Sequence record: OZ335960.1
Direction: 5' to 3' (one strand)
DNA: 64,000 bases
From: a phage
Both the position numbers and the translations under genes were made by a program. The notes beneath the pieces were generated by a model. It was given only the letters and a program-made list of their open reading frames with translations, was not told the DNA's origin and ran no database searches. Below are positions 55,940-64,000 of the stretch, piece after piece; positions within the stretch are counted from its first letter, which is position 1, and each line of letters opens with the position of its first letter.

Positions 55940-56333
55940 TTTTACTAAATATACAGAATAAGATGGAACAGACTATATAAGCACCACACACAGATTGAAC
56001 TAATACCATTCCAAAGAACCAAACAATATTATCAAACCATGTCTGTTTTACGTCGAAAGGACGTAAACTTACAGTAATATTATCACCTTTTTCTATTGAA
56101 GAATACATCTCTGGGGAAATATATTCACTAAATCTATAACCGTCTTTAAGTTCATATATGGCAATAAACGATAAACTAGACCCTTTTCCTTGTGTTCCTG
56201 TAATGGTATTAACTACAGTAACATCATAATCTTTATAATGCATATAATCATTAATTGCGTAATAACCATATGCAACTACTACACATAAACAACATATCAA
56301 TAAATTCAATCTTTTAATTATCAACTGTTTCAT
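55926..56333 (-). CDS. membrane protein, 135 aa
   Basis: N- and C-terminal hydrophobic helices. Confidence 0.5.
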   Translation of the reverse strand: MKQLIIKRLNLLICCLCVVVAYGYYAINDYMHYKDYDVTVVNTITGTQGKGSSLSFIAIYELKDGYRFSEYISPEMYSSIEKGDNITVSLRPFDVKQTWFDNIVWFFGMVLVQSVCGAYIVCSILFCIFSKIEIE

Positions 56334-56388
56334 AATAATCTCAATTAAAAGGGCTTAGAACCATTATACCATCCTTGGTATAAAGCGG

Positions 56389-56916
56389 TTATGCGAGTAC
56401 CGTCTTTAACCGTTCTTCAAACTTCCGAAGAGTATTTTGGCGTTCAGCTCTTTGCTTTTTGTAAGTTTCAATACGCTCTGAAATGAGAGTGTATCGTTCA
56501 TTTACTGATTCTTTCATAAAATCAGGAATTTCACGAGAAGCTTTAATCTCGTCAAATTTATCAATAACAGCTTGCTCTTCAGCAATTAAGTTATCATACA
56601 TTAAAATATCTTTCTTGATGAACTCAATATCTTCTTGAGTTACACGAGATAATTTAGATGCTTTATCCTTTTTGTACTGTTCATTAGTATCACGAGACCA
56701 GTGTAATGTACGATTTTTATTCGTATTCTTGTAAATTTCTACAATACCAATCTCATCAATAATAACGATCCAATTCCAACGGGATTTGTAAATTTGTCCT
56801 CCATCAACAGTGATTTCACCTCCGATTGAGATGTCATTAAAGAACTTGCTTTGTGCCTCAGATTTAAATTTACCATCGTTGTAATTTACCAAGTTGAAAA
56901 TATCTTTAGCGTTCAT
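56389..56916 (-). CDS. hypothetical protein with C-terminal coiled coil, 175 aa
   Basis: Six-frame ORF with SD GGAGGAAC downstream of early promoter. Confidence 0.5.
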   Translation of the reverse strand: MNAKDIFNLVNYNDGKFKSEAQSKFFNDISIGGEITVDGGQIYKSRWNWIVIIDEIGIVEIYKNTNKNRTLHWSRDTNEQYKKDKASKLSRVTQEDIEFIKKDILMYDNLIAEEQAVIDKFDEIKASREIPDFMKESVNERYTLISERIETYKKQRAERQNTLRKFEERLKTVLA

Positions 56917-56939
56917 TTTGTGTTCCTCCGTAGTTGATA

Positions 56940-56976
56940 GTTGTATAGTACCACAGAGGAACAGTCTTGTAAACCA
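56940..56976 (-). promoter_or_regulatory. T4-type early promoter
   Basis: Conserved repeat; -35 rc 56968-56974, -10 rc 56943-56950. Confidence 0.55.
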
Positions 56977-57291
56977 CTAAAAGAAACTTCTTTCACATTT
57001 TTTTCCACTGAACCAGGCGCTCACTGCTTTCTTAGTCTCAGGAGCAGTATTATCCATAAACCATTCAAAGGCAGCCTTTTTGTGATTCTGGAGGGCTTCT
57101 CGGGCTTTAATCTGCTCACGGTCTATTAACACTAACATATGAGCCTTTCTTGTCACCATGGGCTTCTTATGATTTTTTGAATACTCCCAGTCATTTGTCC
57201 ATCGCATTGTTGTTGCGAACTGAAATACTGCTTCTTTAATTTTAGTTTCGTAAATTTCACGAGCCTTTGAGTATAACATCATTACCTCCAT
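56977..57291 (-). CDS. hypothetical protein, 104 aa
   Basis: Six-frame ORF. Confidence 0.45.
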   Translation of the reverse strand: MEVMMLYSKAREIYETKIKEAVFQFATTMRWTNDWEYSKNHKKPMVTRKAHMLVLIDREQIKAREALQNHKKAAFEWFMDNTAPETKKAVSAWFSGKKCERSFF

Positions 57292-57380
57292 TCACCAGTT
57301 TAATTCTAGTCATCTTTTTAATGGCAGTCCATATAATCTATTTCTGAACTGCCTTTTTGTCATAGAAGTCCTCTTATGAA

Positions 57381-58361
57381 TTATTTCAGAAGAGTAACCT
57401 CAGCGATTTCTTCCCAACCGTTTTTGTCGGTCATAATAAAGTCAGCAAGATAAAGAGCAGTACGCAGTGAAACATTGCGTAAACGATTAACATTAACTTT
57501 CATCCATGATAATGCTTTATAAGTTTCTTCATCAGAAAGACCGCGCTTTTGCATCATGTCAGTTGAAAGAATAACATCTTCAACCCTGACCATAATTTCT
57601 TCATTAGTGTGAACACCCAAATCCAAATAAACCGAGCGGGACACTAATGCTTGTAAATGTGGAGCAAGTTTAGTACCACGGTCTAATTCGCGGTCAATGT
57701 CAACGTTTGTGATAAAAACAATCGTTCCTTTAAATTCAAACTCACGCTCAATGCCTTTTTCTTCTAAGTAAGAAGATGCAGTGCTCCAGCAGACTTTACG
57801 GGTCTCTCCGGTGTCCAGAGCGGCTTTTAGAAGATTAAGAATGTCCATATCAGAGAAAACATCCACATCATCAATCAAAAGGACAGAATTCTCTTCACGA
57901 TTATTCCAAAGCTGCTCATAAAGACCAATACCAGAGATTTTACCATTAATGCTTTTATATTCAATGTATCCAATATCATTTGCTTTATTCAAAGCTTTAT
58001 CTAAAGAATACGTTTTACCAATACCTGCTGCGCCAGAGATAATCAATGAACGAATATTTCCATTAATAATACCATTCGTCATCATTCCCATAACATTAAA
58101 TCTTTTATTAATGCGGGTTTTCATATCTTCATACGATTCTTTAACTTCTTCAACTTTTACACCATCATATGAAATATCTGATTTGTAAACCCAAACACCG
58201 CGACGTTTACCGTCAATTTCAACAAAAACTTTACCATCTCCTTGTGCATCTACCGGAGCATTATCTGGGAACCATTCGCCTAAGAGCTCAAAAGTTCCAG
58301 AGATTTCTTTGCCGAAGTAGATACCCTTATTGATAGTTACAGTTTTCATTTTATTCTCCAA
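57381..58361 (-). CDS. AAA+/P-loop ATPase with N-terminal ~90-aa extra domain, 326 aa
   Basis: Walker A GAAGIGKT, Walker B VLLIDDVD, sensor-1-like FITN; own early promoter and SD. Confidence 0.65.
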   Translation of the reverse strand: MENKMKTVTINKGIYFGKEISGTFELLGEWFPDNAPVDAQGDGKVFVEIDGKRRGVWVYKSDISYDGVKVEEVKESYEDMKTRINKRFNVMGMMTNGIINGNIRSLIISGAAGIGKTYSLDKALNKANDIGYIEYKSINGKISGIGLYEQLWNNREENSVLLIDDVDVFSDMDILNLLKAALDTGETRKVCWSTASSYLEEKGIEREFEFKGTIVFITNVDIDRELDRGTKLAPHLQALVSRSVYLDLGVHTNEEIMVRVEDVILSTDMMQKRGLSDEETYKALSWMKVNVNRLRNVSLRTALYLADFIMTDKNGWEEIAEVTLLK

Positions 58362-58379
58362 ATCCGTATCAGTTGATAG

Positions 58380-58416
58380 TTGTATAGTACCATAAAGCTT
58401 TATGCTTGTAAACAGT
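58380..58416 (-). promoter_or_regulatory. T4-type early promoter driving the ATPase gene
   Basis: Conserved repeat; -35 rc 58408-58414, -10 rc 58382-58389. Confidence 0.55.
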
Positions 58417-58435
58417 TTTGTGAAAAATTTTTAAA

Positions 58436-58461
58436 ATAAAAAAGGGAGCCCGAAGGCTCCC
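58436..58461 (-). terminator. UUCG-loop intrinsic terminator after NTase operon
   Basis: GGGAGCCUUCGGGCUCCC followed by UUUUUUAUUUU on minus strand. Confidence 0.65.
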
Positions 58462-58463
58462 TA

Positions 58464-59477
58464 TCATTTATAATAACTTCGGTGGTTTTCAAGATAAACC
58501 CTCTCAAGGAAGTCATCCCAGAAACCCATGTCTACTTTTTGCTGCATACCGTTCTTAGAAGCTTCAATGGATGCTGCTTCTACCTGATCGACCACATCTT
58601 CCAAAAACTCTTGAACAGTTTTAAATGGATGTTTACCCAACTTCACGTCGAGAATAAATGGAGCGTCTTGAAGTGGATAAACTAAGTCACCTGTTTTGTA
58701 AATTTCCAATAGTTGGAGTCCACCACGACAAGCATGACTTAGAGCTTTCCAATCAATGCCCTCATTCGCTTCAGCCTTACGAGCGCGTTCGCCGTATTCA
58801 GCATCAAGTTTATTCAAAGATTGCTTAAGCTCGATAAGAGAAAGCGTTGTTTGATATTTACGACCCAACACAGTGTAGAACGTTTGTGGGCCTGTTTTCT
58901 CATGATTATGGAATACCCATTCACAGAATTCGTTCTCTGGAAGACGATGCTTAATATCTTCAACTTTAGTGCGACGCTGCTTAATGGAACCGTCTTCTTG
59001 ATAATCAACCCATTGCTCAGGGATTTGATTAACTACTTTCAATACATCACGTAATGCGGCCAAACGAGAACCCTTGACGCCGTATTTAGAAGCTTGCTTG
59101 CGAACATATCCTAAATAGGATTTCATGTTAGTCGTATAAAAACGAGAACGATTGTCTTGAATAAATTTCCATACATCAGGCAAATCAGATTTAACCACTA
59201 ACTCAGGTGGAGTGTGGAGCATATCCAATGCTACAGTTTCACCATCTGCTGCTAATTTAAAGAAATACTTAAGACTGTATAGTTCATGGTCAATATCATC
59301 TTTAGTGTTTTTAGATGATGTGTTGTTAGTGTTTTTACTCATATGCTCTTTAACATTTCCGATAAGAATGTCGCGAGCAGGAGGAACAAAGATTTCTTTA
59401 AAATCTACATCAGATTCTGGAGTAGAAGTTCCATAAAGATGACTACCAAAATAGCTTTTCATTACTGTTTTCATCAT
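58464..59477 (-). CDS. Pol-beta-superfamily nucleotidyltransferase-like protein, 337 aa
   Basis: N-terminus YFGSHLYGTSTPESDVDF fits GS-x-G-x-SDxD NTase signature; helical C-terminal region. Confidence 0.6.
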   Translation of the reverse strand: MMKTVMKSYFGSHLYGTSTPESDVDFKEIFVPPARDILIGNVKEHMSKNTNNTSSKNTKDDIDHELYSLKYFFKLAADGETVALDMLHTPPELVVKSDLPDVWKFIQDNRSRFYTTNMKSYLGYVRKQASKYGVKGSRLAALRDVLKVVNQIPEQWVDYQEDGSIKQRRTKVEDIKHRLPENEFCEWVFHNHEKTGPQTFYTVLGRKYQTTLSLIELKQSLNKLDAEYGERARKAEANEGIDWKALSHACRGGLQLLEIYKTGDLVYPLQDAPFILDVKLGKHPFKTVQEFLEDVVDQVEAASIEASKNGMQQKVDMGFWDDFLERVYLENHRSYYK

Positions 59478-59935
59478 TCAGCCTTATATTCAATAACAGG
59501 ACATACTTTAGCTTTACGCGCTTTTAAAAATTCGACGATAATAGATTTCTTAGGTTGAATAGGAGGTAAACCTTTATACGCCCTATCAATATTTTCTACA
59601 TGTAAAGCATAATCCTTTTTCCATTTATAATCTTTATATTTTTCATGCAGTTGTGCAGGAATAACAAATGAACCAATAATAAGTAAAACAAGCAAAATGG
59701 CAAGTATAAATGCTGATGGAATAAGAGTCCATAGACTGCTAAAAATAATCCAACGCTGTAAACTTTCTGCGCAGATAATAGTTAGACCTGCGAGTATAGT
59801 ACATCCGAAAAAAGAAACGAAAAATGTAGGGATAACAATAGACCAAAAGTATGCACATAATGTCTTAGGTCGTTTCCATTCGTCGTTAAACATTTTGAAT
59901 AATTTATAATGCCAAGAGTTTTCATTAATAATCAT
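59474..59935 (-). CDS. multi-pass membrane protein, 153 aa
   Basis: Two long hydrophobic blocks; stop overlaps NTase ATG (ATGA). Confidence 0.5.
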   Translation of the reverse strand: MIINENSWHYKLFKMFNDEWKRPKTLCAYFWSIVIPTFFVSFFGCTILAGLTIICAESLQRWIIFSSLWTLIPSAFILAILLVLLIIGSFVIPAQLHEKYKDYKWKKDYALHVENIDRAYKGLPPIQPKKSIIVEFLKARKAKVCPVIEYKAE

Positions 59936-59937
59936 AA

Positions 59938-60459
59938 TTATCCTTTCATTGAAGGTGTAACAGTTGTTAAATACTTAATCATAGCTTCAGCTTCTGATTT
60001 TGATAATGAAATTTCTCCATTGTTTTGACGAATAGAAATAAAATCCGGATGACGGTCACCACCAGCTTTTAAAATACACATATAAGTATCAGTTTCATCT
60101 TCAATATCTGAAATGATTGAAGCAGTTCCGCATGAATGCGGTTTTTGATAAATCAATGCAGCTTTTCTTCCGCCGTTTGACTGTTCATAAACTTTTAACA
60201 CATCAAACAAATCGCTTCTTTTATCAATAGCTAAGATGTTGTTTTCATCTTCAATGTTAAATCCTTCGGATACTTCATAAAGTGTCACCCATAAATCGCC
60301 AATATCAATGACAGCATTCACCTTTCCATGATTTTCAAGAGCATTACAAATTTTCTTAATTTCATCATAACTCATTTTAATAATATCATCTCCTTGAATA
60401 AAGAAGATGTCATTTTTAAATTCAACGCGAATTAAACCACTTCCACTTGAAATAAACAT
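59938..60459 (-). CDS. hypothetical protein, 173 aa (paralog A)
   Basis: C-terminal SKSEAEAMIKYLTTVTPSM shared with next ORF. Confidence 0.5.
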   Translation of the reverse strand: MFISSGSGLIRVEFKNDIFFIQGDDIIKMSYDEIKKICNALENHGKVNAVIDIGDLWVTLYEVSEGFNIEDENNILAIDKRSDLFDVLKVYEQSNGGRKAALIYQKPHSCGTASIISDIEDETDTYMCILKAGGDRHPDFISIRQNNGEISLSKSEAEAMIKYLTTVTPSMKG

Positions 60460-60465
60460 ATTTCC

Positions 60466-60957
60466 TCACTTTGAAATCATAGTTGGAATGACAGAATCAA
60501 GATAAGTCTTTAGCGCAATAGCTTCGTCTTTTGTAAATGTGACAATATGCGATCGAAAATCATCAATTTGACGAATAGTTAAGACGTCTCCATCTTCATA
60601 ACATTTTGATACGTTTAAAACAGTTTCATCATTCTGATTGCAAGCGTTAGTAATAATAGCATTGCAATTTTTAAACCATTTTAAACTATGTTTTCTTTCA
60701 TTAGAATAATAAAAATATTTAATCTTATCTATAAAACTGTCCCAATGGATAACTGATAAACACATTGACTCACTTTTAATATTAAATCCTGGGCATGAAG
60801 AATAAAAATGAATTTTGTGCTCATCATTGATGCTTACTATTTTATCAGTATAAGGATATTCAATTTGGGTTAAATGAATGATTTCACTAGGCGTAAAATA
60901 CAGCATATCGTCTTCTTGCGTCAAACGATACATGTTATTTACTTTTTCTATAGCCAA
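60466..60957 (-). CDS. hypothetical protein, 163 aa (paralog B)
   Basis: C-terminal TKDEAIALKTYLDSVIPTM. Confidence 0.5.
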   Translation of the reverse strand: MAIEKVNNMYRLTQEDDMLYFTPSEIIHLTQIEYPYTDKIVSINDEHKIHFYSSCPGFNIKSESMCLSVIHWDSFIDKIKYFYYSNERKHSLKWFKNCNAIITNACNQNDETVLNVSKCYEDGDVLTIRQIDDFRSHIVTFTKDEAIALKTYLDSVIPTMISK

Positions 60958-60999
60958 TTCACCAAAAAGGGACTAACTTCTAATACTAATCGTTTCATA

Positions 61000-61278
61000 T
61001 TAATCCTTTTTACTAACATGAATTTGTTCTAAAATTTTAGAGTATTCCTTTGTATCAGATTTACGCACAATCGATACGCTATAAGGCATACTATCAGTGT
61101 CTTTTATAAAGCGTTCCAAATGACACTCTAACAAAATTTCTGGATTATAAATCGTGTACATCAAATTACCTGTTGCTCCACGATATTGGCAGATTTCTAC
61201 TGATTGAGCATCATTCCACAATTTTGTTAAGACTAAATCACCTACTTCTAATTTCGGAAAGCTCACATTATTCACCAA
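61000..61278 (-). CDS. hypothetical protein, 92 aa
   Basis: Six-frame ORF. Confidence 0.45.
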   Translation of the reverse strand: MVNNVSFPKLEVGDLVLTKLWNDAQSVEICQYRGATGNLMYTIYNPEILLECHLERFIKDTDSMPYSVSIVRKSDTKEYSKILEQIHVSKKD

Positions 61279-61453
61279 TTAAAGTTTCAATATAAGAATC
61301 AAGATTTACTTTAGCTTCTTCCATAAGAGTTTTGTATTTAATCTTGTTAGCATATCCAGAGAAAGCTGATTCATCAATAACTGTTGATGTATGAACAGCT
61401 TTACTATACATCTCAATTAATTCTCTTAATTTAAAAGCCTGCTCACTTGTCAT
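61268..61453 (-). CDS. small helical protein, 61 aa (small paralog family member)
   Basis: MTSEQAFKLRELIEMYSKAV... Confidence 0.45.
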   Translation of the reverse strand: MTSEQAFKLRELIEMYSKAVHTSTVIDESAFSGYANKIKYKTLMEEAKVNLDSYIETLIGE

Positions 61454-61583
61454 TACATACTCCTTTGAATAATATCAATAATGTTGTTCACCAAATTATA
61501 CGTAAACATTGGGTAATTATATTGAATCATCACATACACAACAAACAAAACTTTCATTCTCTTCTCCTTGGCAGTTGACAAGA

Positions 61584-61617
61584 TTACTATACCATAACCT
61601 TGCCAACTTGTAAACCA
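61584..61617 (-). promoter_or_regulatory. early promoter
   Basis: Minus strand GTTTACAagttggcaaggttatggTATAGT. Confidence 0.45.
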
Positions 61618-61791
61618 TTAAATGACGTTTTCAATAAAATTCTGAAGCTTTGTGTGAGCATCAACCATGATTTTCATTTCTTCCTTTGCGAAAGCTGTAC
61701 CTCTTTCACGAGAAGAATACTCATAGTCAGAAACTGCATTAGCATATTCTTCAATTAGCTTCATTAAAAACATCTGCTTTTCAGTTTTCAT
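61618..61791 (-). CDS. small helical protein, 57 aa (small paralog family member)
   Basis: Hand translation MKTEKQMFLMKLIEEYANAV...; below track cutoff. Confidence 0.4.
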   Translation of the reverse strand: MKTEKQMFLMKLIEEYANAVSDYEYSSRERGTAFAKEEMKIMVDAHTKLQNFIENVI

Positions 61792-61975
61792 TATTCCACC
61801 TAATCATTTCAAGATATTGAACTAACTTAGCTTTAGATTTATCCAAATCTTTTTTAGCTGCTGCTATACCTTCGTATGAATATCCTTCACAATGCTCAAC
61901 TGCCAATTGGTATGAATCTGTTTCAACATCACGTGCTAATTTAATGATTTTTTCAAACTGTTCACGTGTTAGCAT
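61781..61975 (-). CDS. small helical protein, 64 aa (small paralog family member)
   Basis: MLTREQFEKIIKLARDV... Confidence 0.45.
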   Translation of the reverse strand: MLTREQFEKIIKLARDVETDSYQLAVEHCEGYSYEGIAAAKKDLDKSKAKLVQYLEMIRWNNEN

Positions 61976-61977
61976 AC

Positions 61978-62181
61978 TTAAACTCTCGTATTATGATCAA
62001 TAATTTCATCAAGAAACATATCTAAAGCTTCTACAGCATTATCAACTTTAGCTTCAAGTTCTTCAGCACCTTTATTTGCAATGCCTGACGAAAACCAAGC
62101 AAAGTCACTAAGTTCCTCATCTGCTTTGCGAATTAAAGCTACCAATTCTTTAATTTTATCTGCTTGTTCAATGCTAATCAT
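61978..62181 (-). CDS. small helical protein, 67 aa (small paralog family member; start could be 62217)
   Basis: [20 protein letters not shown]...; ATG overlaps upstream stop. Confidence 0.45.
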   Translation of the reverse strand: MISIEQADKIKELVALIRKADEELSDFAWFSSGIANKGAEELEAKVDNAVEALDMFLDEIIDHNTRV

Positions 62182-62369
62182 TATTCCACCACATATGAAA
62201 GAGAGAATATTGCACACGCCATATGAGTTGCAGCTTCATCACACATATTATAACGTTTCTTAAGAAGTTCTACAAGTTCTTCACTAGTAACTTCATCCAT
62301 GTTGACGAAAAAATCACCATTAATGATGACGTAGATATTTCCTTCTTGATTAAGTGCTTCAATTTTCAT
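62181..62369 (-). CDS. hypothetical protein, 62 aa
   Basis: ATG at 62369 with SD GAGGAG; downstream of early promoter. Confidence 0.45.
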
Positions 62370-62395
62370 GATGTTCTCCTCTTTATCCGATGGTT

Positions 62396-62431
62396 GTATA
62401 GTATCACAGCTCAAATGGAAAGTAAACCGGT
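62396..62431 (-). promoter_or_regulatory. early promoter (-35 GTTTAC, -10 TACTAT)
   Basis: Minus strand GTTTACtttccatttgagctgtgaTACTAT. Confidence 0.5.
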
Positions 62432-62435
62432 AAAA

Positions 62436-62460
62436 TGAAAAAAGTCTCCCGAAGGAGACT
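62436..62460 (-). terminator. UUCG-loop terminator
   Basis: GUCUCCUUCGGGAGAC plus U-run. Confidence 0.6.
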
Positions 62461-62464
62461 AATG

Positions 62465-62851
62465 TTATTCGAGGGAAAGAAGATATTTGCTCTGGTAAAA
62501 CATCCCAGTAATATCATCTATCGTGCTTTGAATGGCCGGAGGCATTTCTTTATAAATGCTGTTAGATTGGTCTAGTATGCGATCAATCATTTTAATTGTG
62601 TCGGTAGGAAGTTTACTGGCATCTGGAATAGAAGGCGTGTATTTTCTACCAGAATACCCCAAATATTGCTCACCAAATTTATCAATCAAATCTGGCAACT
62701 CAGAGAAAATAAAATCGTATGCTTTGTGTCTAGCATAACTTTTAGTTTCAAAATGTGCAGAATGAAAATAAGCTTGTGCAGCCATTAATAAACCTAAGTA
62801 TTCATCTGCCTTTGAAGGTTTTCCACTTTGTGAAAAGTCGCTGAATTTCAT
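62465..62851 (-). CDS. hypothetical protein, 128 aa
   Basis: Six-frame ORF. Confidence 0.5.
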
Positions 62852-63141
62852 TCAGTCTCCAATTTAATGTTCATAATTCTAGCGTATGATTGTGCCATCT
62901 CCGCGCCTCGCTCTATACATTCGAAATCGGAAGAGCACGGGTCATTTTTATAGGTCGTTCGCATAAAACTATAGAACTGTTCAGATGATTCTACGCTTTT
63001 ATTTTCAAAAAGCATATAAACGTGTCTAATACCAGATTCCATAAATTTATCAAAATGAGGATCGACATTCGCTTCAATCGGTGGAGATAAAGCAAATGCT
63101 AATCCTAGCATGGCAAATAGTGCCGTTGCTTTTAAGGCCAT
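62848..63141 (-). CDS. secreted/periplasmic protein, 97 aa
   Basis: N-terminal signal peptide MALKATALFAMLGLAFALSPP; cysteine pair CSSDFEC. Confidence 0.5.
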   Translation of the reverse strand: MALKATALFAMLGLAFALSPPIEANVDPHFDKFMESGIRHVYMLFENKSVESSEQFYSFMRTTYKNDPCSSDFECIERGAEMAQSYARIMNIKLETE

Positions 63142-63153
63142 AAAGGCCTCCTA

Positions 63154-63366
63154 TCATTTTTGTCCTGTATTTACTTTATGCCGATGCACGGCCTTAACTT
63201 TATCAAGGTATTTTTCAAAATTTCGCAATCTAGTATAGTCTGCCGGAGATTGGTTGAGTGATACTTCTCGACGCAAAGCTGAAATGATATTTCCAACTTC
63301 CCTACGAATTTCATCTAATTGAAGAACAGTAAGATTGCGAAGTTGCTTTTCAGTTAATTGTAGCAT
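63154..63366 (-). CDS. hypothetical protein, 70 aa
   Basis: Six-frame ORF; TATAAATA late-promoter-like motif 26 nt upstream. Confidence 0.5.
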
Positions 63367-63391
63367 ATATACCCCTTTAGTTAGATAAACC

Positions 63392-63399
63392 TATTTATA
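63392..63399 (-). promoter_or_regulatory. late-promoter-like TATAAATA box
   Basis: Exact TATAAATA on minus strand between tk stop and next ATG. Confidence 0.35.
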
Positions 63400-63408
63400 A
63401 CTTTTGCA

Positions 63409-63990
63409 CTAACCGAGCTTTTTAGTTAATTCATTCCAGTGTTTTCTACACAAAGAAACATAAATTTCATCACCAATACAGATTTGATTACCTTCTTTAA
63501 CTGGTGTTCCATCTTCCATTAATCGAGCTGTCATAATCGCTTTTTTACCACAATGACAAACTGCTTTTAGTTCAATAAGTTTATCTGCAATCGCCAAAAG
63601 TTCTTTAGAACCTTCAAATAATTTTCCAGCGAAATCAGTCCTTAGACCATAAGCCATAACAGGAACATTATATGTATCAACAATTCGGCTTAATTGATGC
63701 ACCTGTTCAGTTTTTAAAAACTGGGCTTCATCTACAAATACACAATGAATATCTTTTTGTGCTTCTGCCCATTTATAGAACTCAAAAATATCCATATCAT
63801 CCGTAATAATATTCGCTTCCTGTTTAATTCCAATGCGAGAAACGACTTCACAGACAGAATCGCGAGTATCAATAGCAGGCTTAAGAACTAATACGCCCAT
63901 TCCGCGTTCTTTATAATTATGCGCAGCAGTCAAAAGAGAAGCAGATTTTCCAGCATTCATTGCTGCATAAGTAAAAATTAAACTCGCCAT
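63409..63990 (-). CDS. tk: thymidine kinase
   Basis: 193 aa as T4 Tk; P-loop MNAGKS; C-terminal zinc cysteines. Confidence 0.9.
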   Translation of the reverse strand: MASLIFTYAAMNAGKSASLLTAAHNYKERGMGVLVLKPAIDTRDSVCEVVSRIGIKQEANIITDDMDIFEFYKWAEAQKDIHCVFVDEAQFLKTEQVHQLSRIVDTYNVPVMAYGLRTDFAGKLFEGSKELLAIADKLIELKAVCHCGKKAIMTARLMEDGTPVKEGNQICIGDEIYVSLCRKHWNELTKKLG

Positions 63991-64000
63991 CTTAGTCCTT

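Follow-up and report, generated by a model that had tools for sequence, protein, structure and literature searches.

The window analysed here is a 64,000-nucleotide stretch of phage DNA (sequence record OZ335960.1), and our subject is a group of four adjacent genes at positions 58464-60957, above all nrdC.11, which encodes a predicted nucleotidyltransferase (NTase) of the DNA polymerase β (Pol-β) superfamily. Many Tequatrovirus genomes, among them those of the Shigella phages sb2 and pSs-1 and of phage RB14, match the surrounding 4-kilobase (kb) region with 96-98% identity, and the four genes form the 3' end of an early unit of transcription in a phage of the T2/T4 type (Tequatrovirus). An original prediction, made from the sequence alone, had described a four-gene operon of two paralogs, a multi-pass membrane protein and a Pol-β-fold NTase, and had proposed it as a candidate nucleotide-signal or anti-defence module. 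All of its open reading frames (ORFs) are present, and the ORF listing of the window places the four of them on the minus strand, which had been left unstated. In the analysis below NrdC.11 emerges as a probable member of a distinct long form of the RlaP family, for which a role in RNA 3'-end repair is the explanation that we favour. Gene names follow the RB14 annotation: mobD.1, RB32ORF097c ('similar to mobD.1'), RB32ORF096c and nrdC.11. The features of the locus are as follows.

58464-59477, minus strand: nrdC.11; 337 residues, N-terminus MMKTVMKSYFGSHLYGTSTPESDVDF; long-form RlaP (PF10127) NTase of the Pol-β superfamily, with predicted catalytic residues G11-S12, D23, D25 and D63.
59474-59935, minus strand: small membrane protein gene of the RB32ORF096c / RB69ORF104c family; 153 residues; identified by hydropathy and phrog_944.
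59938-60459, minus strand: RB32ORF097c, a mobD.1 paralog of the y05I family; 173 residues, soluble; identified by Pfam and phrog_1502.
60466-60998, minus strand: mobD.1, y05I family; the listed ORF (60466-60957, 163 residues) begins at a TTG; identified by Pfam and DNA alignment.
58462-58443, minus strand: intrinsic terminator with an 8-base-pair G+C-rich stem, a UUCG loop and a U6 tail; identified by terminator scan and folding.
61614-61586, minus strand: sigma-70 / T4-early-type promoter-like site, TTTACA-17-TATAGT with TG; identified by consensus match.
58412-58384, minus strand: promoter-like site before nrdC.10, TTTACA-17-TACTAT with TG; identified by promoter scan and consensus match.

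The NrdC.11 protein is 98% identical to its counterpart in T4 (NP_049709) and 99% identical to those of T2 and RB14. Its residues 7-135 match the Pfam family PF10127 (RlaP, 'RNA repair pathway DNA polymerase beta family') with 43.8 bits (E 3.3e-11; gathering cut-off 23 bits), homologs also carry precomputed matches to this family, and the profile phrog_388, 'nucleotidyltransferase', spans the entire protein (E 7e-137). A search of 1.84 billion cluster representatives recovered relatives in 3421 clusters (50% identity) at E ≤ 0.001 and in 830 at E ≤ 1e-30, nearly all of them full length. Across an alignment of 80 members, with identities of 34-85%, the residues G11, S12, G16, S22, D23, D25, D63, Y132, R231, K244, H248, R251, P268 and K279 are invariant in every sequence. 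The AlphaFold2 model computed from this alignment (predicted local distance difference test, pLDDT, 93.8; predicted template-modelling score, pTM, 0.84) consists of an N-terminal α/β NTase core, a β-rich insert (155-209) and C-terminal helices (214-336). The invariant G11-S12 and D23-x-D25 fall within a modelled succession of strand 3-10, helix 12-15 and strand 24-31, as in the Pol-β superfamily, whose α/β core is marked by an hG[GS] helix-turn motif and a [DE]x[DE] on the following strand, and the predicted third catalytic carboxylate, D63, lies on strand 62-68.

Foldseek searches of the Protein Data Bank (PDB) with this model returned weak matches, all from the minimal-NTase clade: 3c18, the Hailong protein HalB, KNTase, ANT(4'), LinB, Tam41 and MNT. 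No match was found for NrdC.11 in NCBIfam or PADLOC, and sequence searches of the PDB, whether started from the single NrdC.11 sequence, from the profile of 80 sequences or from a profile of canonical RlaP, returned nothing relevant in a set lacking the structure of the Pseudomonas enzyme PfRlaP. The Pfam match, the invariant G-S, DxD and third Asp, and a confident model with NTases as its nearest folds confirm the predicted identity of NrdC.11 as a Pol-β-fold NTase with an intact active site, as its motif had been read originally. The affinity to OAS, cGAS and CD-NTases that had been suggested along with it was not supported, there being no PADLOC match and no structure of these groups in the best fold-match lists; the placement by structure search fell, weakly, on minimal NTases, with HalB, 3c18 and KNTase/ANT-type enzymes nearest, and not on CD-NTases. 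Membership in the CD-NTase/OAS clade was rejected, with neither sequence nor fold in its support.

NrdC.11 has been annotated as a nucleotidyltransferase since 2006 by virtue of COG3541 (PMC1524935), and the assignment is already known from that report, from the Pfam RlaP family, from a 2025 preprint and from the RefSeq label 'nucleotidyltransferase'. The genes of the locus had not been recognised originally as characterised T-even genes; they are named, conserved and catalogued T-even genes. The T4 segment from nrdC.11 to mobD.3 can be deleted (PMC9825161), which fits an accessory role. In pSs-1 (L001, 5165-6174) nrdC.11 is split by a frameshift into two coding sequences, and tblastn recovers two pieces; natural disruption of the gene in at least one isolate is consistent with dispensability. 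Several other labels are frequent in GenBank, namely 'thioredoxin' for nrdC.x genes, 'molybdopterin-guanine dinucleotide biosynthesis protein MobD' for mobD.x genes and 'helicase loader' for small ORFs, and NrdC.11 itself is called 'HNH homing endonuclease' in some records. These labels are artefacts of gene-name copying and carry no functional evidence.

The characterised members of the RlaP family are PfRlaP and PaRlaP from Pseudomonas, which add one or two nucleoside monophosphates to RNA 3'-OH ends. Of the macromolecules of E. coli, Pseudomonas RlaP modified RNA alone, and RlaP is needed to restore the aminoacylation of over-damaged transfer RNAs (tRNAs) that have lost nucleotides; the same study placed T4 NrdC.11 in cluster 5 of its PF10127 network, as 'unknown function' (bioRxiv 10.64898/2025.12.29.696909, for all of these results). 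The genes of both Pseudomonas enzymes belong to operons of the type RtcB-RlaP-RtcA (Burroughs and Aravind 2016; Carruthers, Fatma and Huang 2025 preprint), and in the crystal structure of PfRlaP the last helix of the C-terminal helical domain packs on the NTase domain. In jumbo phages the distribution of RlaP mirrors that of RNA ligases, where its predicted task is to replace the nucleotides that RloC-type nucleases take away (PMC7824862). A tRNA-repair hypothesis is already published, as is the prediction that the RlaP family extends damaged RNA 3' ends ahead of ligation, and the cellular gene neighbourhoods described below support that prediction.

Canonical short RlaP proteins, represented here by 13 sequences of about 255-290 residues from bacterial loci, match PF10127 over their full length (E 1e-51 to 1e-62). 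When the NrdC.11 alignment was compared with canonical RlaP by hhalign, the similarity (95.5% probability, E 1.5e-8) was restricted to the NTase core (residues 6-94), within which D63 of NrdC.11 is paired with the invariant third Asp of the canonical proteins. Because the similarity covers this core only, NrdC.11 is assigned by sequence comparison to a distinct long-form RlaP subfamily of about 310-350 residues. In 14 bacterial loci (L019, L021, L029, L037, L038, L048, L052, L064, L065, L067, L073, L082, L083 and L091) a long form is followed directly by a canonical short RlaP of 250-290 residues, often with overlapping stop and start codons, and from this arrangement the two look like a tandem pair of paralogous partners rather than versions of the same enzyme. 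Phage records with a canonical short RlaP number 80; most are of jumbo phages, and no T4-like phage is among the matches listed.

A scan of cellular genomes, one per species, identified 156 bacterial and archaeal loci that encode full-length relatives of NrdC.11. The neighbourhoods of the best 80 of these (32-54% identity) were analysed over 6-kb flanks by ORF clustering, iterative searches and Pfam checks. An RNA-repair gene lies within this distance in 17 of the 80 loci, with RtcB in 9, Pnkp in 8, Hen1 in 5 and Ro60/TROVE in 4; these genes, representatives of which were confirmed with Pfam, are mostly on the same strand as the NTase gene, and some abut it. One locus (L067) has the order Hen1-Pnkp-long NTase-short RlaP with overlapping stops and starts, a second (L052) reads Ro60-RtcB-...-long-short-Hen1-...-Pnkp, and in a third (L062) Pnkp ends 4 nucleotides before the NTase gene. 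Since each RNA-repair gene is at most single-copy among thousands of genes, we estimate that chance would supply about one such gene per 80 intervals of 12 kb. Of the evidence assembled here, these gene neighbourhoods argue most strongly for a role of the long form in RNA repair.

For the phage context, 78 IMG/VR loci with 6-kb flanks were searched with RNA-repair seed sequences. In Rheinheimera phage Barba19A (L011, 2247-4900) a CCA-adding enzyme (PolyA_pol and HD domains), a 139-residue 'hydrolase' ORF and an NrdC.11-like NTase are encoded on one strand, a trio that, judging from its gene content, may be a tRNA 3'-end maintenance cluster. Clusters of tRNA genes lie within 6 kb in a few of the viral loci, and three further metagenomic neighbourhoods of distant homologs had no recurring partner. 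The ligase domain of a bacterial Pnkp, used as a tblastn query against phage genomes, was too distant to recover T4-like ligases. Among other observations in these neighbourhoods, genes for nicotinamide adenine dinucleotide (NAD) salvage stand a few kb from the nrdC.11 homologs of phiAS4 (L006), Margaery (L007) and a further locus (L180); they are a gene for a nicotinamide phosphoribosyltransferase and another annotated 'cytidyltransferase'. In two metagenomic phage contigs the gene directly after the RlaP homolog (L012, 6974-7978; L013, 1529-2533) has a precomputed AcrVA2-like Pfam match, and a Pfam scan of this protein returned nothing at E ≤ 0.01.

The 153-residue product of the gene next to nrdC.11, read here as a small inner-membrane protein, has hydrophobic stretches at residues 25-59 and 62-98 (Kyte-Doolittle maximum 3.0 over 19 residues) and matches phrog_944, 'membrane protein' (E 1e-50). 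The two long stretches fit two to four predicted membrane spans, in agreement with the multi-pass protein described originally; no long hydrophobic stretch was detected by hydropathy in NrdC.11 or in the 173- and 163-residue y05I proteins. The membrane protein has homologs in T4-like phages only, and it shares with the versions from RB69 and KPV15 a conserved N-terminal motif, MIINENSWH..W..PKTLC.YFW, and a conserved basic C-terminal motif, YLKARKxKVCPxIEY. Nothing exceeded the Pfam gathering scores (best E 0.012), no match was found in NCBIfam or, at E ≤ 10, among PDB sequences, and no nucleotide-sensor domain is recognisable in these searches; the only PADLOC match is a weak one to PDC-M39A (E 0.002). 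The RB14 annotation of RB32ORF096c reads 'replaces mobD'. T4 has the HNH homing endonuclease gene mobD between nrdC.11 and mobD.1 and lacks the membrane gene as well as the second y05I paralog.

The original prediction noted an overlap of the NTase and membrane-protein genes, which we recover as the 4-nucleotide ATGA shared by the nrdC.11 start and the stop codon (TGA) of the 153-residue ORF. The same ATGA overlap with the nrdC.11 start is formed by unrelated upstream ORFs in KPV15, Margaery and phiKp_32, and it is therefore generic. Of the two genes, nrdC.11 has 1518 phage records and the membrane gene 926, so that the latter is missing from at least 592 of the records with nrdC.11. Within 6 kb upstream of nrdC.11 the membrane gene is present in 38 of the 78 viral loci and absent from 40; where present, it abuts nrdC.11 in about 12 and lies 0.4-2 kb away in about 26. 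No ORF separates the two genes in Tequatrovirus (except T4), Mosigvirus and Dhakavirus, while among other Tevenvirinae genera one intervenes in Moonvirus, two in Karamvirus and three in Jiaodavirus, all of them unrelated. Outside that subfamily the upstream ORF is a different one; in phiAS4, Margaery, AS-szw, phiKp_32, Vibrio phage D480 and Barba19A, the ORFs upstream of the NTase are mutually unrelated and not hydrophobic.

This distribution is what is expected from conserved synteny in a variable early region, and falls short of demonstrating a functional pair. Together with the two y05I proteins, the membrane protein is probably one of the lineage-restricted neighbours by gene order that function independently of NrdC.11. 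The proposed module has consequently to be divided: its signalling coupling is not supported, in view of T4, the record counts, the intervening ORFs and the bacterial homologs, whose associates are RNA-repair genes and not membrane proteins, whereas an anti-defence role for the NTase is plausible as RNA repair rather than as nucleotide signalling. Similarly, the linkage of the four genes largely dissolves into ordinary nrdC.x genes with unlinked distributions, the 1518 and 926 records above standing beside 479 for the 173-residue paralog.

We favour, with moderate confidence, the explanation that NrdC.11 is an RNA 3'-end repair nucleotidyltransferase. It would add one or a few nucleotides from nucleoside triphosphates, in a template-free manner, to the 3'-OH of broken RNA; its chief substrate would be tRNA halves produced by RloC-type nucleases of the host, which cleave the anticodon and remove a nucleotide besides, and the phage enzymes Pnkp and Rnl1/Rnl2 would then heal and seal the ends, so that full-length tRNA is rebuilt. 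T4 Pnkp and the RNA ligases are established T4 enzymes, encoded outside the window. The predicted fold and catalytic residues, the family membership and the bacterial RNA-repair neighbourhoods emerge from the present sequence comparisons and model, while the RNA substrate and the counter-defence role would follow by analogy with the family.

Several observations weigh against this explanation. The characterised RlaP enzymes come from a family cluster different from that of NrdC.11, the PF10127 match is limited to profile positions 23-142 of 249, and by hhalign the C-terminal half of the long form has no similarity to that of the short form, because of which their substrate specificities, as far as sequence can suggest, may differ. 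The nearest solved structure, HalB, makes DNA oligomers and not RNA extensions. No RNA-repair gene lies within 6 kb in 63 of the 80 cellular loci; in the 78 viral loci RtcB occurs once within this distance (L171) and a CCA-adding enzyme three times, and phage nrdC.11 does not adjoin RNA ligase or Pnkp genes. In the window, too, no RNA-repair gene lies within 6 kb of nrdC.11, and the genomic association typical of RlaP is hence seen for the full-length cellular homologs and not at the phage locus. Lastly, the membrane gene, wherever present, is upstream of nrdC.11, even at 31% identity, where the homolog stands one ORF from the RlaP gene within a conserved vs-rI-...-RlaP gene order; because of this constant position, a loose functional tie between the two is conceivable.

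A first alternative retains RNA 3' ends as the substrate, with a purpose other than anticodon-loop repair. NrdC.11 might rebuild or cap the CCA ends of tRNAs that host defences attack, or tail host or phage transcripts and thereby affect their stability. The Barba19A homolog that follows a CCA-adding enzyme, the presence of such an enzyme within 5 kb in the three viral loci and in L012/L013, the tRNA gene clusters near a few viral homologs and the lack of linkage between the phage gene and RNA ligase genes would all accommodate such a role. We nevertheless regard it as unlikely, as the bacterial association is with ligase-based repair (RtcB, Pnkp/Hen1, Ro60) and not with tRNA 3'-end maturation genes, and the proximity to CCA-adding enzymes is confined to few loci. 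A somewhat more doubtful proposal is that NrdC.11 nucleotidylylates a small molecule or a protein, in the manner of KNTase, ANT and LinB or of the HEPN-AMPylating MNT antitoxins, for instance to inactivate a host toxin. An NTase followed by a helical bundle is an architecture common to the whole clade and does not single out these enzymes; moreover, NrdC.11 belongs by sequence to RlaP, a family in which the enzymes assayed modified no E. coli macromolecule other than RNA, and the bacterial neighbourhoods point to RNA repair. A partner gene of the HEPN type is absent from the adjacent positions, and an MNT-HEPN toxin-antitoxin pair was rejected for that reason.

In two further alternatives the membrane protein may be a participant. 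NrdC.11 could carry out template-free DNA or RNA homopolymer synthesis as HalB does, perhaps protein-primed, with a product that is either a decoy keeping host HalA-type channels closed or a ligand of the membrane protein. The Hailong system pairs an NTase with a membrane protein (PMC13434031), both enzymes have a DxD at the extreme N-terminus (D21/D23 in HalB, according to PDB entry titles, and D23/D25 in NrdC.11), and Tyr132 is invariant in the NrdC.11 family, HalB being known to prime synthesis on a tyrosine. The likeness is nonetheless restricted to the common NTase core: PDB searches at E ≤ 10 with the single sequence and at E ≤ 1 with the family profile detect no sequence similarity, NrdC.11 exceeds HalB by 120 residues and differs from it in the C-terminal half, the membrane protein has just 153 residues, lacks a PDB sequence match and is dispensable for the retention of nrdC.11, and the bacterial homologs reside in RNA-repair operons instead of two-gene defence cassettes. 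We therefore hold this possibility to be very improbable, and give even less credence to its extension, in which the NTase-membrane pair of T2/RB14-type phages would be a real unit deploying a HalB-like oligonucleotide counter-measure, lost by T4 upon invasion by mobD. Hardly any probability attaches, in our judgement, to the remaining proposal, a CD-NTase/OAS-like second messenger that acts on the membrane protein or interferes with host signalling. The 4-nucleotide overlap here, the abutting genes of Tequatrovirus (except T4), Mosigvirus and Dhakavirus, and the invariably upstream position of the membrane gene speak in its favour; but no CD-NTase or CBASS model matches, the best folds include no cGAS, OAS or CD-NTase, nrdC.11 persists without the membrane gene in T4 and at least 592 of the 1518 records, Moonvirus, Karamvirus and Jiaodavirus have between one and three unrelated ORFs between the two genes, the ATGA overlap recurs with unrelated upstream ORFs and so is generic, and the membrane protein has no recognisable nucleotide-sensor domain.

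Turning to the remaining genes of the group, both paralogs contain the N- and C-terminal y05I domains of Pfam (T4_y05I_N and T4_y05I_C, E 1e-21 to 1e-33), well above the cut-offs of 24.9 and 27 bits (PF24449 and PF24448): the 173-residue protein scores 116 and 82 bits (E 1.3e-33 and 4.1e-23), and the 163-residue protein 113 and 75.7 bits. Their paralogy had been recognised from a shared C-terminal motif; it extends in fact over the full length (BLASTP, 25% identity, E 3e-9). The Pfam name of these domains is 'putative transcription factor', and an AlphaFold2 model of the 173-residue protein from a shallow alignment of 11 sequences reached a pLDDT of 42. The mobD.1 protein is 85-98% identical to those of T4 and pSs-1, and its Pfam match begins at profile position 12. 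DNA alignment with T4, pSs-1 and RB14 revealed a 1-nucleotide deletion near 60970 in the window, CCACTTTTT -> CC-CTTTTT (60960-60998, minus strand), which shifts the ATG at 60998-60996 out of frame; the TTG listed as the start at 60957 is therefore an artefact of ORF calling, and about 14 N-terminal codons are lost or recoded. Either a sequencing error or a genuine truncation of the 5' end could account for the deletion. A metagenomic protein (P0281, 179 residues) is chimeric, its N-terminal half matching mobD.1 and its C-terminal half the 173-residue paralog, a composition that suggests recombination between the tandem paralogs.

The transcription unit ends 2 nucleotides past the nrdC.11 stop codon in the strong UUCG terminator that had been predicted, AGGGAGCC-UUCG-GGCUCCCU followed by U6, with a folding energy of -17.7 kcal/mol (z = -4.2; none of 200 shuffled sequences was as stable). 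Its upstream extent is a different matter. The 92-residue gene directly upstream of mobD.1 (61000-61278, minus strand; Pfam Phage_tudor, E 5e-39) ends 1 nucleotide before the ancestral mobD.1 ATG (60998-60996), the mobD.1 start being placed likewise in T4, pSs-1 and RB14, and scans of the window found neither a promoter-like nor a terminator-like site between mobD.1 and the upstream genes. The 92-residue gene is thus part of the same unit as mobD.1-nrdC.11, and since this unit lacks a boundary upstream of mobD.1, the reading as a self-contained operon of four genes was rejected. The nearest early-promoter-like site upstream of mobD.1, at 61614-61586, is also the best match of the promoter scan (10 of 12 positions), and the next terminator upstream of the four genes is at 62460-62443. 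The four genes are, then, the 3' part of an early unit of at least seven genes ending at the UUCG terminator; by its sequence signals this unit likely starts at 61614-61586, in the order mobD.2, two small ORFs, mobD.1, its paralog, the membrane gene and nrdC.11.

Directly past the terminator, the promoter-like site at 58412-58384 marks nrdC.10 as a separate predicted unit. Near-identical boxes, GTTTAC..17-18 nt..TACTATACAAC, follow both UUCG-loop terminators (62460-62443 and 58462-58443) within about 30 nucleotides (regions 62395-62460 and 58384-58462, minus strand), and the combination of a UUCG terminator with an early-promoter box looks, from these two occurrences, like a repeated cassette. 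The nrdC.10 gene (57381-58361, minus strand) encodes 326 residues with weak matches to AAA and STAND-NTPase families, all under the Pfam gathering scores, and is downstream of nrdC.11 in 36 of the 78 viral loci. An Rfam search of 56000-64000 gave no match.

RNA repair was discovered in T4, in which Pnkp and Rnl1 counter the PrrC anticodon nuclease. Should NrdC.11 restore nucleotides trimmed by RloC, it would add a third step to this classic pathway and explain the retention of nrdC.11 across the Straboviridae (1518 phage records, 3421 clusters). The original prediction had correctly read an NTase motif in a known gene, and the module proposed around it is not upheld. Beyond published knowledge, the present analysis recognises the T-even enzyme as a member of a distinct long-form subfamily, places full-length bacterial long-form homologs in Pnkp/Hen1, RtcB and Ro60 operons, often directly before canonical short RlaP, and makes the membrane and y05I genes look like gene-order neighbours rather than partners. 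The residual value of the locus lies in the biochemistry of the long-form subfamily.

Set against known systems, NrdC.11 has in common with the CD-NTase, cGAS and OAS enzymes the generic Pol-β motif (G-S ... DxD) alone and falls outside their clade, and no adjacent effector with a nucleotide-sensing domain was detected at the nrdC.11 locus with Pfam, NCBIfam, PDB or PADLOC. KNTase, ANT(4') and LinB, as well as 3c18, are 7-12% identical to it, with poor template-modelling scores; the first three act on small-molecule antibiotics, and nothing found here suggests such a substrate for NrdC.11. HalB (PDB 9dbh/9dbj), an oligodeoxyadenylate-synthesising NTase of about 217 residues that forms a tetramer and is paired with the membrane channel HalA, has no sequence similarity to NrdC.11 that could be detected. 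Hailong is a host defence cassette of two obligately paired genes, whereas the phage membrane gene is often absent or separated from nrdC.11, being missing from T4 and from at least 592 of the 1518 records and standing one to three ORFs apart in three genera. T4 NrdC.11 (NP_049709) is the same gene in the same position, between nrdC.10 and the mobD region; in T4 mobD lies upstream of it, and the window instead has the 153-residue membrane gene and the second mobD.1 paralog, as do RB14, RB32 and T2. With canonical RlaP, NrdC.11 shares the NTase core with its three carboxylates and, in general layout, the succession of an N-terminal NTase and a C-terminal helical domain; its length exceeds that of the canonical form by about 60-80 residues, and it contains the β-rich insert at 155-209, T4-like phages carrying the long form only and jumbo phages the short form.

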